From Candidatus Omnitrophota bacterium (GTDB lineage Bacteria > Omnitrophota > Omnitrophia > Omnitrophales > Aquincolibacteriaceae), in assembly GCA_043803685.1 (NCBI GenBank), contig JAZDJU010000054.1:1-32965 (forward strand): a stretch of 32,965 nucleotides of DNA, given 5' to 3'. The notes beneath the pieces were generated by a model. It searched no databases. It saw only the letters and a program-made list of their open reading frames with translations, and was not told the DNA's origin. Both the position numbers and the translations under genes were made by a program. Of the stretch, positions 24,687-32,925 are shown piece after piece. The first letter of the stretch is position 1. Each line of letters starts with the position of its first letter.

Positions 24687-26250
24687 TTAAGAATATGCAA
24701 AAAAACCCATAGGCCCCTTCAAGAAGGATGACAACTCTAATCGAGAGCCTCGGCTCCTGAAACTTAGCGCGCCAACACTCTTCAGATCAAGGGCCGGGAT
24801 TCGCTGAGCTTCCAGATAAGCCATAAATTCTGGATTTATATCGGGCAAAACGACGAGCGACGGTCGGGCGAGTTCCAGCCATTCTTGAAATTCCACAGGG
24901 ATCGTGCGTTTGAGAACGGGTAAATAAACTGCATGGACCTCCTCCAAGTCCGCAGGATGCCGGAGAAGTTCTGAAAATAGTTCTGGATCCCAATGAGAAA
25001 TGAAAAGGATCCGCCACGAGCCCGACTCGACTCTCAGGACAGTCCCTCGTTGTGATGCCGCAAGCACCCGTATTCTTTCCTTCCCCATCACGATGGCATC
25101 TCCCCGCTGAAAGGTCCTGGTTTGGCGTCCGCGTGAGCGAATAGCGCGACGGAACTCCTCCGACCCGTATGGGAATGCGGCGGGATACAGCAGATAATGA
25201 ACCGGAAAATCCCGCAAGAGTGACGCAATTCCACCTGTATTCCTTTTGGAAAGGTCGGAAAAAAGTATCCCCTCCAAACGCTGGATGCCTTGGCGCCTCA
25301 AGAAAGGAGCCACCAGCCATTCCCCCTGATCTGAGGGAAACCCTCTCCCCGTATTCAAAAGCCAGTGCGTTCCATTGGAGAAATTCGAGTGCACGATCTG
25401 GTTCCTGCCGCTCGCAAGCAAAGTAAGCTCAAATTCCTTTTTTCCGGACTGGATAAAAAATGAACCCAGGCAAAAGATCCAACACCCCACAAAACAAGCC
25501 ATGAGATAGCGTTTTCCGTAAAAGGCCCTTTTATAGAGAAACAAGATCATGGCCACGCATGTGTAATAGCCCACTAGCTGGCCAAACGAGGGCCGCTCCA
25601 GGAACCAATACCCCCACCTCCATGTCGAAAGGGATTGGACCCAAAAAAGTCCCACCCCAAGGATCCAGGACGATCCTTTGACCCAAAGGACACTCAGGAA
25701 TGGTACTCCACTAAAAATGAGGGTAAAAAGAGCGCTGAAAAGCGCGGCGTCAAAAACCGGAATCGCCACCAGGTTCGCAAGGAGACTGATTGGAGAGAAA
25801 ATGTTGAAGTGATACAGAACCACAGGGAACGTCCCGAAAAGCACCGCAAAACTAGAGCCGAGAGATAAAGTCCGGATATTCCAACGCGAAAATACCGGGA
25901 TCGCCAGGATGAGTGAAAAAACAGAAAGAAAGGAAAGCTGAAATCCGATATTCCAAAGGCTTTTGGGATTACAAAGAAGGATCACAAAAAAAGCGAGGCA
26001 AAGCGCATTCAAAAGACTGGCGGGCCGTCCCACGAGGATCCCCACTAGCACCAGGATCGCAGCGTATCCGGCTCGCTGGACCGGAAGGCCGGCTCCCGCA
26101 AGCCCCACGTAGATGACCACAATCAGGATCGTCAAAAACGAGGTTCCTCGATGTCCGATCCCTGCAAGAAGGAACATCATGTAAAAACTTCCGGCGATCA
26201 TGGTGATGTTGAGCCCGCTGATCGCAAGCAAATGGATCGTTCCGACGGCG
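24687..26250 (-). pseudogene. comEC: 3' part of comEC/Rec2 competence gene, interrupted by the integrated element
   Basis: GTIHLLAISGLN, P.QRA, GFQLSFLSV and ANLVAIP Competence-domain motifs plus an MBL-like domain. The N-terminal TM/OB region is absent; the recombinase gene lies there instead. Confidence 0.85.
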
Positions 26251-27907
26251 ACAGGGAAACAACATTTGAATTTCCCTTTGGCAATACAGTTGATGTTGTT
26301 TCGTGGCCGCGTCGGCAAGGATGGGACCCTTCCGATGGTGGAGCGGAAACAACATTGGAGGTTTCATCAGAAAAACGCAGTTCTGATGTAGGGATAGTGC
26401 AGTAAACATCCACCGCGCCACTAACTTTTGCAATAACTCGCGTATTTAAAAGATGCAGAATTCTTTTCTTCGAATCAAAAGCATTGGTATTCAACCCTTT
26501 CTTTATTTGCGCGACATAGTCAATGGCCTTTTCGACCTGGGCACTATCCCCCTTCGTAAAAAGGCTTACAGCTTCATCCCTTCCCAAGGAAAGCGTGACC
26601 GTCTCCGCTTTGATTTTGGCCATCTGGCTTTTAAATTGTTCGATGCTGATAATTTCCTGGCGATAAGCTTCCAACATCCGGAATTCCTCCTTACCCAACA
26701 CCTTCAACCGGGCTTCTATCTTGGCGAGCTCTTGCTGGGAATTCTTAACCTGTTCCGGATCACGTTTGTTTTGCTGCTTCACGATATTTTCGATCAGTTT
26801 CGGATTTTCCAAGAGACTCTCAATCTCTTTCCAGACAACAGAATCAACGGATCCCGCCTGCATATAGCGCAAGTTACACTTAACCGTTTTCTTATAGATG
26901 TTTTTCGTAAAATGCGTGCATCGGTAATAGAGATTAAAGTAAGGGCCATAGACCCTCCCATTTTTTTTAAAACGCTGGCGGTCTGCGGTCCCCGCGATCG
27001 TATTGCCGCAATCACCGCATTTGGTAAGGCCCTGAAGGAGATACTGGTATTTCACATTCCTTGCGGTGTAGTTCCTGCGCTCGGTAAGCAGATATTGCGC
27101 TTGCTGGAAAATGCTTTCTGAAACAATGGCCGGGACACTAACTTCGATCCACTCCTCTTGAGGCTTGCGCTTCCCCTTCCGGCCATATCTATTCGCGTAC
27201 CATTTCCCTATATAGATAGGATCACGAATAATGTCATGAATGGCATCGCCTTTCCATTCAACGTTTTCTCTGGATTTGTAACCAAGCTTGGTAAGTCTCT
27301 TCGCTACGCGAACAAGCGAGCCCTCGGGTTCGCAGTACCATTTAAAAGCAAGCTTTACGATCTCTGCCTCCTCGGGACAGATTTCAAGGTGCCTCCGATC
27401 TTCCGTACACTTGAAACCGTATTTGGTTGGGTTTGCTCCAGAGTAGTAGCCCTCTTTAGCCCGTCTCATTCTGCCCATACTGGAACGTTCCATAAACGTG
27501 TCTCTTTCCAGCTGAGCGAGAGACCCAAATAGTGAAAGGATGAACTTGCCGAGGTGATTGGATGTGTCAAAGGGTTCGGTAATGGATTTAATCCCCACAC
27601 CAAAGTGCTCCAGCTCTTCGGTCACCGTAAGCAAGGCGCGGTTGTTTCGAAAGAAGCGATCCAGCCGATGGACCAAAATGAGATTAAATTCTAAATTCTT
27701 TGCGTCTTGTAGCATTTTTTGGAATGCGGGCCGATCAAGGACTGTTCCAGAATACCCGGCGTCAACATACTCGTTAAATACCGCATAGCCATTGTCGGCT
27801 GCGTACTTTCTGAGCATTTCAAGCTGCGCAGGGAGTGAAAAGTTTGAAGCCTGATCTTCCGTCGACACCCTGGCGTATAAAGCGACCTTTTTACCGTTTG
27901 AGATCAT
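26198..27907 (-). CDS. Large serine recombinase (integrase)
   Basis: YARVST catalytic Ser, SG...RP, RLDRFFR, recombinase domain (DPIYIG), Zn ribbon CGDCG...YYRC...C, coiled coil. Confidence 0.96.
   Translation of the reverse strand: MISNGKKVALYARVSTEDQASNFSLPAQLEMLRKYAADNGYAVFNEYVDAGYSGTVLDRPAFQKMLQDAKNLEFNLILVHRLDRFFRNNRALLTVTEELEHFGVGIKSITEPFDTSNHLGKFILSLFGSLAQLERDTFMERSSMGRMRRAKEGYYSGANPTKYGFKCTEDRRHLEICPEEAEIVKLAFKWYCEPEGSLVRVAKRLTKLGYKSRENVEWKGDAIHDIIRDPIYIGKWYANRYGRKGKRKPQEEWIEVSVPAIVSESIFQQAQYLLTERRNYTARNVKYQYLLQGLTKCGDCGNTIAGTADRQRFKKNGRVYGPYFNLYYRCTHFTKNIYKKTVKCNLRYMQAGSVDSVVWKEIESLLENPKLIENIVKQQNKRDPEQVKNSQQELAKIEARLKVLGKEEFRMLEAYRQEIISIEQFKSQMAKIKAETVTLSLGRDEAVSLFTKGDSAQVEKAIDYVAQIKKGLNTNAFDSKKRILHLLNTRVIAKVSGAVDVYCTIPTSELRFSDETSNVVSAPPSEGSHPCRRGHETTSTVLPKGNSNVVSLSPSERSICLRSAGSTSP
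26205..26365. repeat. Putative hybrid att site plus an adjacent attP-like site (three copies of CCGA-N10/9-GAAACAACAT)
   Basis: GAAACAACAT at 26256-26265 and 26346-26355 (90 bp apart, direct) and inverted ATGTTGTTTC at 26293-26302. Confidence 0.6.
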
Positions 27908-28285: not shown

Positions 28286-28456
28286 CTATTTCCGGAACTT
28301 CTCAAGATCCTTCTTATCCATAAACTTGATACCGCTGATCGTAATAAATTTCAATCGGCCTTCCCTAATTGCCTTATGGATTGCTTGTCGCGTTAAACCG
28401 GCTTCCCTGGCGAATCTTGTTATGCACAAGAAATTATCCGTCTCAATCGTCGGCAT
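28286..28456 (-). CDS. Small excisionase-like HTH protein (56 aa)
   Basis: Manual translation MPTIETDNFLCITRFAREAGLTRQAIHKAIREGRLKFITISGIKFMDKKDLEKFRK; winged-HTH pattern of the HTH_17/Xis type. Confidence 0.7.
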   Translation of the reverse strand: MPTIETDNFLCITRFAREAGLTRQAIHKAIREGRLKFITISGIKFMDKKDLEKFRK

Positions 28457-28478: not shown

Positions 28479-29027
28479 TTACCTGATGTCTACTTTTTTT
28501 TCTTTTGCTAAAAGCATCGTTTTATCGCTCCACAACCCGAGCCCCTTCTCCCTCGCCTCTTTTTGCAAGCCAAGAAACAAGTCCTGATATTTAACGTTTG
28601 GAGGGTAAGTCATGACCTGGGCGTAACCCGCTTTCATTATCTCGGCATTGACGAATGTTCCGTCCTCCAAATAAACGTAAGCCAATAAACGCCCGTATTT
28701 ATCTCTCGGCCGGACATCCAACTCAAGCCTGACCTTCTTGCCTTGAACCAATCTCCGGGTGAACGCCGCCGCCTCTTTCCCCATCAGGATGATCTCATTT
28801 GCGTCCCGCCCGGTTCTCTTTGCGTCCTTGCGCAGTTTCGAGTTATTGGAGGATTCCGGAGTATCAACACCGATGAGACGGACTTTTTCTCCGCTGGAAA
28901 GCTGCAAAGTATCACCGTCCACGGCGCGGGTGACGGTCAAAGGATCATTTTTCGAAAATCCAACGAAGGGGCTGCTAATAAACATTACCGCCCCGAGGAT
29001 TAGTATTTTCAGTACCGGACATCTCAT
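28479..29027 (-). CDS. Thermonuclease (staphylococcal nuclease-like) with signal peptide
   Basis: VDGDT, VRLIGVDTPE, DKYGRLLAYV, A(RE)KGLGLW; hydrophobic N-terminus. Confidence 0.95.
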   Translation of the reverse strand: MRCPVLKILILGAVMFISSPFVGFSKNDPLTVTRAVDGDTLQLSSGEKVRLIGVDTPESSNNSKLRKDAKRTGRDANEIILMGKEAAAFTRRLVQGKKVRLELDVRPRDKYGRLLAYVYLEDGTFVNAEIMKAGYAQVMTYPPNVKYQDLFLGLQKEAREKGLGLWSDKTMLLAKEKKVDIR

Positions 29028-29031
29028 GGGC

Positions 29032-29298
29032 TCAGTCCTTGCTTCCGAACTTTCTCATCATCACCAAAAAATCCGAGTACGCATCAACATCTTTTAGTTG
29101 CTTCTTATACTTGGCCACTAGCTTTTGGAAGCGTCCATCCTTCAGCAGCCCCTCGCCCTCAAGGATCTCAAAAATCGCCATAAAGTAAGCACCCTGATTG
29201 ATCATAAGTTTTGAAAACTGCCGATCGAGCTCATTTACTTTCTTTTTTATCTTCTCGAGTTCCATGCCGCCCCCTTCCAATGAGTACTTACCGCTCAC
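29032..29298 (-). CDS. Hypothetical helical protein
   Basis: ORF overlaps the upstream stop (GTGA) and ends 4 bp before the nuclease; alternative start at ATG 29265 after GGGGGG. Confidence 0.6.
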   Translation of the reverse strand: MSGKYSLEGGGMELEKIKKKVNELDRQFSKLMINQGAYFMAIFEILEGEGLLKDGRFQKLVAKYKKQLKDVDAYSDFLVMMRKFGSKD

Positions 29299-29552
29299 CC
29301 TTCATCACACGCGCAACCGTCATACAAAACCTGGCCCGTATCCTTCGCGATAACAACAGCATGCCCGGAAGCTATGACGCCCTTTCTATCCGGCTGAAGC
29401 GAACAATAAACGCACCAGACATCATCGGGATTACGAGGAAAACTCCCATAGATAGCAAAATTAGACGGAATCCCGCGCGTAGCCCCGTACAATTCGAACT
29501 TAGCGCCATGAAGCTTTTCCGCGATCGCGACCGCTTCTTCCTTAGAAATCAT
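29295..29552 (-). CDS. Hypothetical protein, PepSY/immunity-like pattern
   Basis: RBS GAGG; ISKEEAVAIAE...VVIAKDTGQV pattern. Confidence 0.6.
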   Translation of the reverse strand: MISKEEAVAIAEKLHGAKFELYGATRGIPSNFAIYGSFPRNPDDVWCVYCSLQPDRKGVIASGHAVVIAKDTGQVLYDGCACDEG

Positions 29553-29627
29553 ATTTCCTCAATCGCACCTGCATAAATCTTTACGTTTCAAGATATGTTC
29601 CTCGTTAATTAGAGATCTTGTTAATTA

Positions 29628-29849
29628 TTAAGGCGTGCATTTCACTGATCGTTTTTTTTCAGCTAACCATACTTCAATCTCGTCAACTTTAAATTTTGTG
29701 AGTTTACCCAATTTGTAATGAGGTATCTTTCTGATGGCGCACCAATCATAAAGCGTATTTTTCGCTACCCCCAACATTAACGACAGCTCATCAATGTTGA
29801 TTAGTCGGCTCGAGTTATCAGCCCATGACTTTTTAATGTCGCGAATCAT
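29628..29849 (-). CDS. Excisionase-family HTH DNA-binding protein
   Basis: LINIDELSLMLGVAKNTLYDW...IPHYKLGKLTKF..DEIEVWL; RBS AAGGGAG. Confidence 0.85.
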   Translation of the reverse strand: MIRDIKKSWADNSSRLINIDELSLMLGVAKNTLYDWCAIRKIPHYKLGKLTKFKVDEIEVWLAEKKRSVKCTP

Positions 29850-29914
29850 GCCAATCGACTTAGCTCCCTTTCTTACGCATTGTGGTACGCGGTAACGTTC
29901 TTTTCTGAAAGCAC

Positions 29915-31009
29915 CTACATTTTTAAAAACATTCTTAAACTGGTAGCGACCTCGTATGCCAGTGGCACAGGAACGCCATTCCCTATCAGCTTGAATTTTT
30001 TAGTTAAAGAAAAATCTTCTGGCAAGACGTACTCATCAGGAACTCCTTGAATCCTCAAGGCTTCGCGTACCGACAAACGCCTTTTTTCCCAGGGGTGCAA
30101 ATGCACCTCGTTATTGCCATAACAAGCGGTAGGACTGAACCGATAACGATGCAACCTTTTGAAAGACTTCCGAGAGGTATCGCCTTCAAGGATAGAAAAA
30201 AACTTTTTCGAATAGGCCTTGAACGCTTCCTGACCGTTCACTATTTCCTGCGGAGGATTTTTGCTGCCAAAAATTGAATCTATCATTAACTCATAAGGAA
30301 TGTTTTCCGGCTTAAGAGGTTTCGCCCCAAAAAGATTAGTGTCTGGCCACTTATATTTCTTTTTCGCATCCGGAAACTTCAACTTATGCCATGGAAACCA
30401 GCCCCTCTCCTCCCTAGGCACCATTCTTCCGAGTTGTTTCCTCACGATGCCTCGTTTAACCCCTACAACAAACAACCTCTCCCGATCTTGCGGGCACCCA
30501 CACTCAAGCGCATTCAAGATTCTTATATCAATGTTGTAATCGGCTTCTTCAAATTCATGCTCTATTTCAAGCAAAAACTCTCGGTGGATTTTAGTTCTAT
30601 ACAGGCCTGGAACATTCTCGAAAACGAAAAAAGAGGGCTCGATTTCGCATATTTTTTTCGCATAGACCCAGGAGAGTTGACCATGATCCCCCGTCTTTCC
30701 CTTTTGCTTTCCTCCCACGCTAAAATCTGGACACGGAGGACCGCCTATCACACCAAACATCTGCTTCTTCCCGCACAGCACCTTGTTACGAATTTGTTCG
30801 CCGTCGACTCTTTTAATGCTTCCAATCTCTGATATCTCAATTAAGCTGCCGCCTCTCGATTTGCGCCAAGACGACATTCCATGCCTGTACAGTTCTGCAA
30901 AGTCTGGGTTTATTTCATTTGTCCACACAACATTGAATCCTGCTTTTTCGAACCCTATGTCCAAAAATCCGCCACCGGAGAAAAAAGATAATATTGGGAT
31001 GTGTTTCAT
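29915..31009 (-). CDS. DNA (cytosine-5) methyltransferase, DrmMII-like
   Basis: Motifs FSGGG (I), GGPPC (IV), ENV (VI), QDRERLF (VIII), RIQG (IX), GNGVP (X); ATAA/ATGA-type overlap with drmB. Confidence 0.95.
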   Translation of the reverse strand: MKHIPILSFFSGGGFLDIGFEKAGFNVVWTNEINPDFAELYRHGMSSWRKSRGGSLIEISEIGSIKRVDGEQIRNKVLCGKKQMFGVIGGPPCPDFSVGGKQKGKTGDHGQLSWVYAKKICEIEPSFFVFENVPGLYRTKIHREFLLEIEHEFEEADYNIDIRILNALECGCPQDRERLFVVGVKRGIVRKQLGRMVPREERGWFPWHKLKFPDAKKKYKWPDTNLFGAKPLKPENIPYELMIDSIFGSKNPPQEIVNGQEAFKAYSKKFFSILEGDTSRKSFKRLHRYRFSPTACYGNNEVHLHPWEKRRLSVREALRIQGVPDEYVLPEDFSLTKKFKLIGNGVPVPLAYEVATSLRMFLKM

Positions 31010-32925
31010 AAGATTTGTTGTTCATTAAAAAACCCGAGAGATTCGGCGCCAAAGCTCCCAATTAACATTGCGCGATCCAAAAACTTGTTAAACTCTTCAC
31101 AAGCCGTCTCAGGAACCAGGCAACAACCATGACATGCGGCTAAATTACATGAAAATGGGCCCTGTCCACCGGCTTCCCCCATCTCCATACAAACAGGATC
31201 CGATGAACACCATTTTGCGTCATTAAGGGCACGGACCACTACGTTTTCAAGATTATCAACTTCCCCCATTTTCACCAGCCCCCCCATGCTGCCCTCTGCA
31301 TCACCCGCTGCCGTATATATCAATAGTCCTGCCATTGGAACATCATGATTACTTGATACATATAATTTTTCTCTTAAAGAAGCGGTACTATACCCACTAT
31401 CAAAAGTGAGTCTATTAATCAAACAATGGCTAAAAGTGTGAATTAATACATATCTGGGCGAAATCGTCCTCGGGCGCCATCCCCTCTCATGTTGTAGCCG
31501 CGCGTACATTCTCGCCAAACCTTCTATTCGCGAAGCAACCAACGGCAGACTTTCCCATTGGCGCAGCACATCCTCTTTGAATCTAAAAAAAATACCTTCT
31601 CCAAACACTTTGTAACCAGGCAACCAATTATTCGCTTCATTCTCCGGATCCCGCCACAGCAATGACCGCTGCTGCTCTAACGTCTGCTCGTTTTCTGCAA
31701 AAATACGTGAGAATCCGGCGAGCACCCTCGTTTCTCGAAGTTTGTCTACGAGCATAATGCTTTCAAAGTACCGTTTCATTAAATCACCATAAAGATTAAC
31801 CTGCATTTTGCGTATCTTTAGAACCTCCTCATCCCTGGGATTACTAAGAACCTCATACTCACTCCTTCGAAAAGCAGTCTCTTCATCATCGTCAACGACA
31901 ATTGCAGCTTGCTGTTCCATCCTTTCGGGCTGGCGACTCGCATCGATTGCAGCTTTTAACTCTTCGTCCGAAAATGGATCTAAGGCCCCCATATTTGCTC
32001 TTTTAAGTGAGGGCACAATAACTTCCGTCTCCGCTCCACTGGTCAGCAATATGTTCAGAATTTCGGACAAAGGAGGCTTCTCTAATAGCGTCAACAATGT
32101 CTCAGACACACCTCTTCTTCTTGGCAAATAAATTGCCGATCTAATATGCGCAAAATAAACGTTAGATGCATTCCTCAATGAACCACGAAGGGGATGACTA
32201 CATGTCGAAATATCACTACCTCCTAGCCAGGGTCTCTTGCCCTGGCAAGGATACAGCCCCTCTTCCTCAAATAGATGCGCGCTTAGATAGGACCGCTCAT
32301 TACCATCATCATCAGCATTCGATTCCATGATGCGTCCAAGATTTCTATTTGCACCACATTCGCACCAAACAACCTGTGCAGCAAGAGATGTGCTTCCTGT
32401 GGCGACAAGCCTCAGACTCAGATTACACGCAGGATACGCACTCCTGTGAACCCATTCCCGCCACGGAAAGTCCTGAATATGGCCAGCTGAGCACATTGCG
32501 ACTATAGGGACTTGGACTAGGTATCCAGCGCGATTATTTTGCGCAGCGCAATGCCGACATCTCCCTTTTTCACGCTGATGTAGTGATATTTGTTCCAAAC
32601 GATTACAAGCTAGACAGAAATGCCACTGGGGGAATCTAAGAAAAGGTACCGTCAGATACTGATTTTTCCCTTTCTTGCCAAATCCTTTTCTCGTTCTAAA
32701 ATCTGGAGGGTTTCGGAAATGGTTTACACGCAGCAGTCTCTGTAAGCGCCATTCGTTTATTATGTACTCATTTCTATCAACAACCTCATCTTCATAATTT
32801 GGCTCGTGTTGATACCAGTGATCTAAACCCGCCGTAATTAGTGACGTCCCATCCTTAACAATCACCATTGCCCCCACGCCGAAGGGGGCAATAAGTTGAG
32901 CCCGCCTAATAGGTCCTTTTGTCAC
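31006..32925 (-). CDS. drmB: DISARM DrmB-like protein (DUF1998, MrfA-like Zn-binding)
   Basis: IRRAQLIAPFGVGA N-terminus, C..GHIQDFPW, GEGIF, HTFSH.LI, SLREKLY, GSMGGLV, CSSDP.C, LAACHGCCLVPETACE.FN.FLDR. Confidence 0.88.
   Translation of the reverse strand: MTKGPIRRAQLIAPFGVGAMVIVKDGTSLITAGLDHWYQHEPNYEDEVVDRNEYIINEWRLQRLLRVNHFRNPPDFRTRKGFGKKGKNQYLTVPFLRFPQWHFCLACNRLEQISLHQREKGRCRHCAAQNNRAGYLVQVPIVAMCSAGHIQDFPWREWVHRSAYPACNLSLRLVATGSTSLAAQVVWCECGANRNLGRIMESNADDDGNERSYLSAHLFEEEGLYPCQGKRPWLGGSDISTCSHPLRGSLRNASNVYFAHIRSAIYLPRRRGVSETLLTLLEKPPLSEILNILLTSGAETEVIVPSLKRANMGALDPFSDEELKAAIDASRQPERMEQQAAIVVDDDEETAFRRSEYEVLSNPRDEEVLKIRKMQVNLYGDLMKRYFESIMLVDKLRETRVLAGFSRIFAENEQTLEQQRSLLWRDPENEANNWLPGYKVFGEGIFFRFKEDVLRQWESLPLVASRIEGLARMYARLQHERGWRPRTISPRYVLIHTFSHCLINRLTFDSGYSTASLREKLYVSSNHDVPMAGLLIYTAAGDAEGSMGGLVKMGEVDNLENVVVRALNDAKWCSSDPVCMEMGEAGGQGPFSCNLAACHGCCLVPETACEEFNKFLDRAMLIGSFGAESLGFFNEQQIL

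Follow-up and report, generated by a model that had tools for sequence, protein, structure and literature searches.

A second attP-like dyad beside the comEC junction of an Omnitrophota serine integrase element, probably a duplicated pseudo-attP

The sequence examined here (hereafter the window) is the whole of a 32,965-nt contig, C54 (GenBank JAZDJU010000054.1), from the 2.89-Mb, 133-contig metagenome-assembled genome of a Candidatus Omnitrophota bacterium (GCA_043803685.1; designated G000). The region of interest, at positions 24,687 to 27,907, is the integrase-proximal hybrid junction, composed of a P half and a comEC-derived B′ half, of a large serine recombinase (LSR) island that splits the host gene comEC; the 3′ part of comEC and the integrase open reading frame (ORF) both lie on the minus strand ( Table 1 ). 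Within the element, 90 bp from the junction, there is a second attP-like dyad. From comparison with relatives' integrases (48–91% identity) collected from 401 genomes of the phylum, we consider it probable that this inner dyad is a duplicated pseudo-attP, which does not serve as the crossover in any carrier seen, can probably still be bound by the integrase, and forms part of a linker whose reading frame has to remain open. As a look-alike of the docking site it would be a small twist on a well-known integration system, and one that is apparently undescribed.

The history that we favour would run as follows. An exact, in-frame duplication of 90 bp of the attachment region would have taken place once, in the ancestor of an integrase clade of at least 77% identity, and the integrase-distal copy would have remained the working attP. 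The proximal copy would have retained recognisable P-type half-sites, to which integrase dimers probably still bind, with a centre that drifted (GG/CC here, AC in two carriers) and one arm left 1 nt short. Given the drifted centre and the short arm, the inner dyad is most likely a non-recombining pseudo-attP. Its frame would have been preserved, free of stops, on account of its position in the translated linker between the integrase and a ribbon-helix-helix (RHH) module, in a putative fusion ORF that would be continuous only in the excised circle.

Table 1. Features of the window discussed in the text (positions are those of the whole window; an empty strand cell means that no strand applies).
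Feature	Position	Strand	Basis or remark
comEC 3′ part, host gene split by the element	24687..26234	-	Pfam PF03772, E 2.9e-45; genome search places it at C54:25533-26246
LSR ORF, 569 aa	26198..27907	-	Open across both sites, with its stop in comEC; Resolvase, Recombinase, Zn_ribbon_recom
comEC-derived B′ half of the hybrid (attR-type) junction	26208..26232		Same layout as the right half of the uninterrupted attB of 14 same-genus genomes
Crossover dinucleotide TG (minus strand CA, first two bases of the His codon)	26233..26234		Sole in-register dinucleotide shared by attL and attR, five genomes
Outer, functional P half-site	26235..26265	+	GGAAA at 21-25 from the centre, then CAACAT; conserved in relatives of 48-91% identity
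Spacer, outer P arm to inner dyad	26266..26292		6/27 columns vary among three carriers, about the rate of 4-fold sites
Extra 90-bp unit (30 codons, stop-free)	26270..26359	-	Specific to the integrase clade of at least 77% identity
Inner attP-like dyad	26293..26355		Centre GG at 26323-26324; distal perfect 10-nt inverted repeats
Cargo: SNase, C-5 cytosine methylase, DrmB-like protein	28479..32925	-	Pfam and PADLOC
HTH_17 excisionase-like small ORF	29628..29849	-	PF12728, E 3.4e-12; phrog_66 'excisionase and transcriptional regulator', E 6.1e-8

The comEC junction and its crossover

Homology to comEC begins in the window at GTIHLLAISG, and intact comEC genes of the same genus align with the window as far as the crossover. 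The other end of the element and the 5′ half of comEC, which an earlier sequence-only reading of this DNA had suggested looking for, were located on contig C63 (DUF4131, E 1.5e-26), where the ORF ends in ...FMKTGTIHISPMADTKWNYTPF followed by the stop. The core TGGATCGT is common to the window (26233) and to C63 (10450). The comEC side of C63 joined to the comEC side of the window gives the intact comEC sequence of 14 same-genus genomes, and integration was therefore precise; the attB rebuilt from the attL side on C63 and the attR side in the window matches the attB of these genomes, as expected of precise attP × attB recombination. The C-terminal part of comEC is present in 18 of 20 same-genus genomes, with uninterrupted comEC and attB in 14 of those 18 (open frames of 750–824 aa), split copies in G000 and one other genome (G024), and two copies cut by contig ends. 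A 23.5-kb Logan contig (X1 record 1) runs from the comEC side of the window, past 26244, into 5′ comEC sequence. The two same-genus copies of comEC that are cut by a contig end are those of G062 (locus L065, G062:C28), where the contig stops 3 nt before the CA crossover, and G160 (locus L063, G160:C7); these may be further insertions that broke the assembly.

The crossover, which the sequence-only reading had placed near 26234, maps to the TG at 26233–26234. As that reading also held, the first of the repeated arms described below makes up the P half of the hybrid junction, and its centre falls on the His codon (CAT, 26232–26234, minus strand). The TG is the centre of TTTCC-N20-CA-N20-GGAAA. 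For these comparisons attL was located in four of the five genomes searched, and attL was compared with attR in five genomes. A position weight matrix (PWM) was built from seven half-sites from genomes other than G000 and scored on 5.77 M genome positions, where the outer P half-site (score 32.4) came out on top. The true sites all match TTTC(C/G)-N20-CA-N20-(G/C)GAAA, which gives half-sites of 25 bp and an attP of 52 bp, the sizes expected of an LSR. According to PMC3783163, the half-site of LSRs is 25 bp and the contact 50 bp, and the zinc-ribbon domain (ZD) motif is shifted by 5 bp in attB; inspection of the comEC B and B′ arms by eye for a ZD motif so shifted gave no convincing one.

The position of the site is shared among relatives. 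The central CA is invariant in the 14 intact same-genus attB sites and in four further hosts, and the 3′ end of the integrase passes into comEC at the same codon in G024, G022, G178, G169, G360 and G034; the contig of G020 terminates at the crossover. In G060 (locus L018, G060:C43) the integrase, 54% identical, has the opposite orientation and points towards the 5′ half of comEC. Its register is TTTCG-N20-TG, the same attB with the central dinucleotide flipped, which explains the inverted insertion. At the far end of the G000 element, the arm that the sequence-only reading had anticipated was found in part: the P′-side arm on C63 shares TTTCG..CCGC at the mirror position and lacks ATGTTG.

The inner dyad and the extra 90-bp unit

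Direct reading and a repeat search both confirmed the repeated arms at the positions first reported. The two copies of the direct repeat (26234–26269 and 26324–26359) agree at 27 of 36 positions and start exactly 90 bp apart. The statement that a 30-nt sequence repeats exactly 90 bp later was thus right as to the spacing and not as to the sequence, since the two 30-mers match at 23 of 30 positions. ATGTTGTTTC (26293–26302) is a perfect inverted copy of GAAACAACAT, which is found at 26256–26265 and 26346–26355. This 10-mer occurs 13 times in the 2.89-Mb genome, counting both strands, and the window holds exactly three exact matches, which are the three arms described here; with three of the 13 copies in this one place, the arrangement is not due to chance.

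The second and third copies form the inner dyad, which has the complete geometry of an attP and a different core, as had been recognised at the outset. It consists of two inverted P-type half-sites: the right one (26325–26349) has GGAAA at 21–25 and is in phase with the register of the family, and the left one (26299–26322), at 24 nt, is 1 nt short and has CGAAA at 20–24. In all three DNA variants known to carry it (G000, G024 and L047, the last being a third host from a metagenome) the dyad measures 51 bp versus the canonical 52 bp and so departs from the spacing of the family. The central GG of the plus strand reads CC on the minus strand in G000, and the corresponding core is AC in G024 and L047, versus CA in every comEC attB; the inner core does not match the comEC attB, the only partner compared. 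The PWM gives the inner right arm 16.6 bits, which ranks it 14th among the 5.77 M positions, as compared with 15.6 for the genuine P′ arm of G000; the inner left arm reaches 13.5 if a 1-nt gap is allowed and 2.5 if not. As DNA, the dyad folds at −15.1 kcal/mol (z −2.75). Its interpretation as an RNA structure or terminator was rejected, as it has no T-run and the sole arm change in L047 is uncompensated.

The extra unit is exactly 90 bp long in the three DNA variants, and L048 is the same as G024 over the stretch shown. All eight protein clusters of at least 77% identity (P0001–P0008; P0001 corresponds to the DNA variant L047 and P0002 to G024, and P0004–P0008 are at 77–88% identity) have both units in their tails, and these tails turn comEC-derived (I-x-x-RSA) only after the second, distal unit. 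The inner site is therefore the crossover in none of the nine carriers (G000 and the eight protein clusters). Just one unit is present in P0009 (65% identity) and P0010 (61%), and the extra unit is missing from five comEC-sited relatives with 48–64% integrase identity (L015, L016, L019, L020 and L021), where a single P arm after the integrase leads directly into comEC. Its presence in all members of the clade of at least 77% identity, and its absence from relatives, indicate that the unit arose once in that clade. Both the number of units and the core, whose comparison across homologous integrases the sequence-only reading had called for, are thus variable.

Among the 401 phylum genomes, inner-site DNA was found in G000 and G024 only, and the tandem-clade integrase was likewise limited to these two among 66 genomes of the family; two 27-nt matches (G318 and G126; E about 0.003–0.004 per genome) were taken as chance. 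A 20-nt pattern from the outer P arm recovered three metagenome loci (L047, L048 and a chance match, L049) and gave 0 matches in viral contigs. Both sites are also covered, with a single mismatch in each case, by two 151-nt Logan contigs of other runs, and a search of sequencing runs found no run with more than 0.18 of the sequence words. No joint at 26234 or 26324 was seen in Logan contigs over the junction, which are contigs only and have no bearing on excision. A 215-nt Logan contig (X1 record 3), identical to the window, begins at 26239, very close to the crossover; its start may mark a branch of the assembly graph at the junction, arising from mixed integrated and other forms or from mixed hosts. 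The idea that a second LSR uses the inner site was discarded, with G000 having one LSR match at E ≤ 1e-30.

The tandem layout has travelled with the element. Integrase-side DNA is about 91–93% identical among the three carriers and comEC-side DNA ∼60–70%, with the drop in identity falling at ∼26234, the junction, and the ComEC protein of G024 is only 64–65% identical to that of G000. With such high identity of the element in diverged hosts, it therefore moved between hosts with the tandem layout intact.

The integrase–RHH reading frame and competing readings

The integrase ORF includes the motif ALYARVSTEDQ, the resolvase catalytic domain (PF00239, E 3.1e-36, residues 8–154), PF07508 (E 6.9e-22) and PF13408 (E 3.2e-8), and it matches the phrog_95 integrase at E 6.5e-108; residues 360–452 give weak matches to helical families, with a coiled coil only hinted at. 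In seven of seven comEC-integrated relatives the ORF has no stop before the crossover, the C of the CA is always at codon position 3, and the stop lies 13–172 nt inside comEC. On the P′ side, the integrase frame past attP is open for 131–149 codons and ends at the stop codon of a conserved RHH protein in all five elements with known attL, and the other two frames stop after 4–49 codons. The P′-side RHH ORF of G000 is at C63 10001–10450 (minus strand; locus L002), and its match to RHH_1 is marginal (E 1.4e-4, 22.2 bits, cut-off 20.5).

A fused form is represented by P0020, a protein of 742 aa from an 18.5-kb Logan contig that contains Resolvase, Recombinase, Zn-ribbon and RHH_1 (E 2.8e-7) domains. 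Over 613 residues it shares 89% identity with P0018, a protein that terminates exactly at the crossover, and its residues 612–742 align to the P′-side ORF of G000 from residue 5 (E 1e-15). The open frame across attP, together with this fusion, indicates that the unintegrated attP lies inside a single integrase–RHH ORF, which integration would truncate, cutting off the RHH module. The RHH module family has 27 representatives at E ≤ 1e-3, nearly all of them called as proteins of 54–185 aa; a word search for longer forms gave no fused RHH module, which is weak evidence, and P0020 against viral contigs gave only a 25% relative. No carrier has a stop or frameshift in the integrase tail, and the 90-bp unit is in frame throughout. 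Protein-coding constraint on the tail was considered and set aside, as no codon-position bias was seen (6–12% changed at positions 1 and 2 vs. 10–18% at position 3).

Several other readings of the inner dyad were weighed. That it is a cis-acting integrase-binding site under selection, whether as a decoy, an architectural or an autoregulatory element, seems to us rather unlikely; a dimer 90 bp from attR (or beside attP in the circle) would then modulate synapsis or directionality and itself be non-recombining. In its favour, the half-site scores are comparable to that of a true P′ arm, G000 and G024 both preserve the perfect 10-bp inverted repeat, and integrases as distant as 77% identity still have a unit of exactly 90 bp. 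However, the integrase–RHH reading frame already accounts for the constant length and frame, relatives use the same comEC site without the unit, and accessory att-like sites were not described in the LSR literature searched. The arms vary less than 4-fold sites, 28% of which vary among the three carriers in the integrase gene, and the centre and spacer do not: 7 of 53 columns are variable in the inner arms once the central 10 bp are set apart (P = 0.008 against the 4-fold rate of 0.28), as compared with 6 of 10 in the central 10 bp and 3 of 25 in the outer P arm, yet these are counts from three DNA sequences, partitioned post hoc into windows chosen after the alignment had been seen. A bolder version, which we regard as unlikely, is a state-sensing integrase that would exist as Int-linker-RHH in the circle and lose RHH upon integration, with a selected, non-recombining dyad that biases integration versus excision in cis. 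Conversely, the unit could be purely a length variant of the protein linker, its 30 codons a spacer at most and the DNA dyad incidental. It does comprise exactly 30 codons, stop-free in all carriers, which in the fused ORF separate the integrase body from the RHH module; but the tail is without codon-position bias and the pattern of conservation tracks the layout of the half-sites, and we find this explanation quite unlikely.

An active second attP, with an orthogonal core suited to another attB or to alternative integration, would account for a complete dyad of P-type geometry whose non-palindromic core is unlike CA. We judge it very improbable given that none of the nine carriers crosses over there, that the core differs between carriers (CC, AC, AC) and that the dyad is 1 bp under the canonical spacing. 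Moreover, with CA invariant in the 14 attB sites and the four further hosts there is no host variant calling for CC or AC, and the inner P arm is further from the arm of G022 (12 of 34 mismatches, counted by hand) than the outer arm is (7 of 34). The first three of these observations also leave unsupported the alternative target specificity and the tandem accretion that the sequence-only reading had entertained.

Where the unit came from is plain for its P side, a clear copy of the P arm (29 of 36 matches), and less so for its left arm. It could be that 90 bp (P arm and comEC B′ flank) were duplicated while the element was integrated and that excision at the distal copy carried the junction along, which would make the inner dyad a remodelled old attR. 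The left arm and spacer share 36 of 53 positions with the comEC B′ side, as compared with 33 of 53 with the P′ side on C63; a further repeat, D2 (26193–26211 and 26280–26298), matches at 14 of 19 with a spacing of 87, and the flank beyond P′ matches the spacer at 17 of 29, which is no detectable homology relative to shuffles (15.0 ± 1.8). Against this, the B′ alignment requires three gaps, and the present geometry is P-type, with the left-arm ACGAAA at P-type distance and identical to that in P′ of G000, whereas the comEC B′ arm has no GAAA. The left arm and spacer also match the P arm read outward at 36 of 53 and the inner right arm at 33 of 53, and half-site types are all alike (16–18 of 24 matches observed vs. 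12.3 ± 1.7 of 24 in shuffles), so that similarity cannot decide. With similarities this close, attP duplication in the circle and attR duplication followed by remodelling are both possible; we hold the old attR to be rather unlikely. The scar of an earlier integration that the first reading had listed is accordingly unlikely in its simple form, both arms being P-type, and possible as an origin, the left arm being about equally similar to B′ and P′.

For the duplicated pseudo-attP that we prefer, a number of points weigh on the other side. The 1-nt shortfall can be placed either mid-arm or at the centre, and the assigned inner dinucleotide therefore depends on the register chosen. The slow-evolving arms and the perfect 10-bp inverted repeat exceed what a relic would need and hint at function. 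The conservation comparison is limited by its three sequences and its windows, as mentioned above, and L047 was ascertained by an exact match to the outer arm. The similarity of the left arm fits more than one origin of the unit, and rare use of the inner site may be compatible with data that consist of contigs only.

Related systems, cargo and extent of the element

The integrase has the same Resolvase, Recombinase and zinc-ribbon organisation as those of Listeria A118/LI, phiC31, Bxb1 and SPbeta SprA, and the site has the imperfect ∼52-bp attP dyad, 25-bp half-sites, distal motif and 2-bp crossover of large serine integrases, which reconstitute attB precisely and do not need accessory sites. 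Unlike in those LSRs, there is a second full attP-like dyad 90 bp away and the attP lies within the integrase frame; no description of a tandem or spare attP, or of an attP inside an LSR ORF, was found in the literature searched, which was a limited library. Crossover inside the ORF, such that integration alters the C-terminus of the integrase itself, is a feature of Mx8 IntP/IntX and of SSV1-type integrases, which are tyrosine recombinases. In contrast to these, the serine integrase here would lose a whole RHH module of 131–149 aa on integration. An element that splits a gene at a precise in-frame site, and whose excision restores the gene, is exemplified by skin in sigK. Serine-integrase elements likewise interrupt a gene in frame, with excision expected to restore it, in the case of the Listeria comK prophage and of SPbeta in spsM (PMC7397523 and PMC5499854). 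The present element differs from such regulatory switches in that the target is comEC in Omnitrophota and the cargo appears to be of a defence type (DrmB, methylase). The integrase–RHH ORF also resembles the engineered fusions of integrases with recombination directionality factors (RDFs) presented in PMC5737554, in which a serine integrase and a small accessory DNA- or integrase-binding module are joined in one polypeptide. Those fusions are man-made and contain a known RDF, whereas the fusion here is natural, would exist only in the circular state and has a putative RHH module.

Serine integrases are valued as minimal systems of one protein and two short sites, and a natural, non-crossover attP-like dyad inside the integrase's own frame suggests more cis-architecture than the textbook picture. 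If the dyad binds the integrase, it offers a ready test case for the effect of extra P-type sites on synapsis and directionality. The family provides a well-defined new set of integrase, attP and attB that targets comEC (TTTCC-N20-CA-N20-GGAAA), and the integrase–RHH read-through shows that integration can remodel the recombinase itself. Were the state-sensing reading true, the arrangement would be a natural, built-in directionality device and not a scar; if the dyad is only a relic, it would be an ordinary duplication scar in a linker.

Elsewhere in the element, the HTH_17 ORF is a candidate directionality factor or regulator. A 56-aa ORF upstream of the integrase (28286–28456), which has no family match, is a candidate excision or regulatory factor. 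The cargo of DrmB-like protein, methylase and SNase looks like a defence set, with PADLOC matches to DrmB (E 2.8e-75), DruM/MTase_II (E 2.3e-136) and SNc+LTD (E 1.5e-28). The contig ends 40 bp past the start of the DrmB-like ORF, and a DISARM-like set may continue elsewhere. On the far side of the element, C63 4558–9389 holds ORFs that by eye appear response-regulator-like and membrane sensor kinase-like. The G000 element is at least 17 kb long (6.7 kb on C54 and 10.4 kb on C63), and a search for overlap between the contig ends found none. In G022 (loci L015/L044, G022:C5), attL at ∼8.06 kb and the integrase and attR at 72.6–74.2 kb are on one contig, which gives an element of ∼66 kb.

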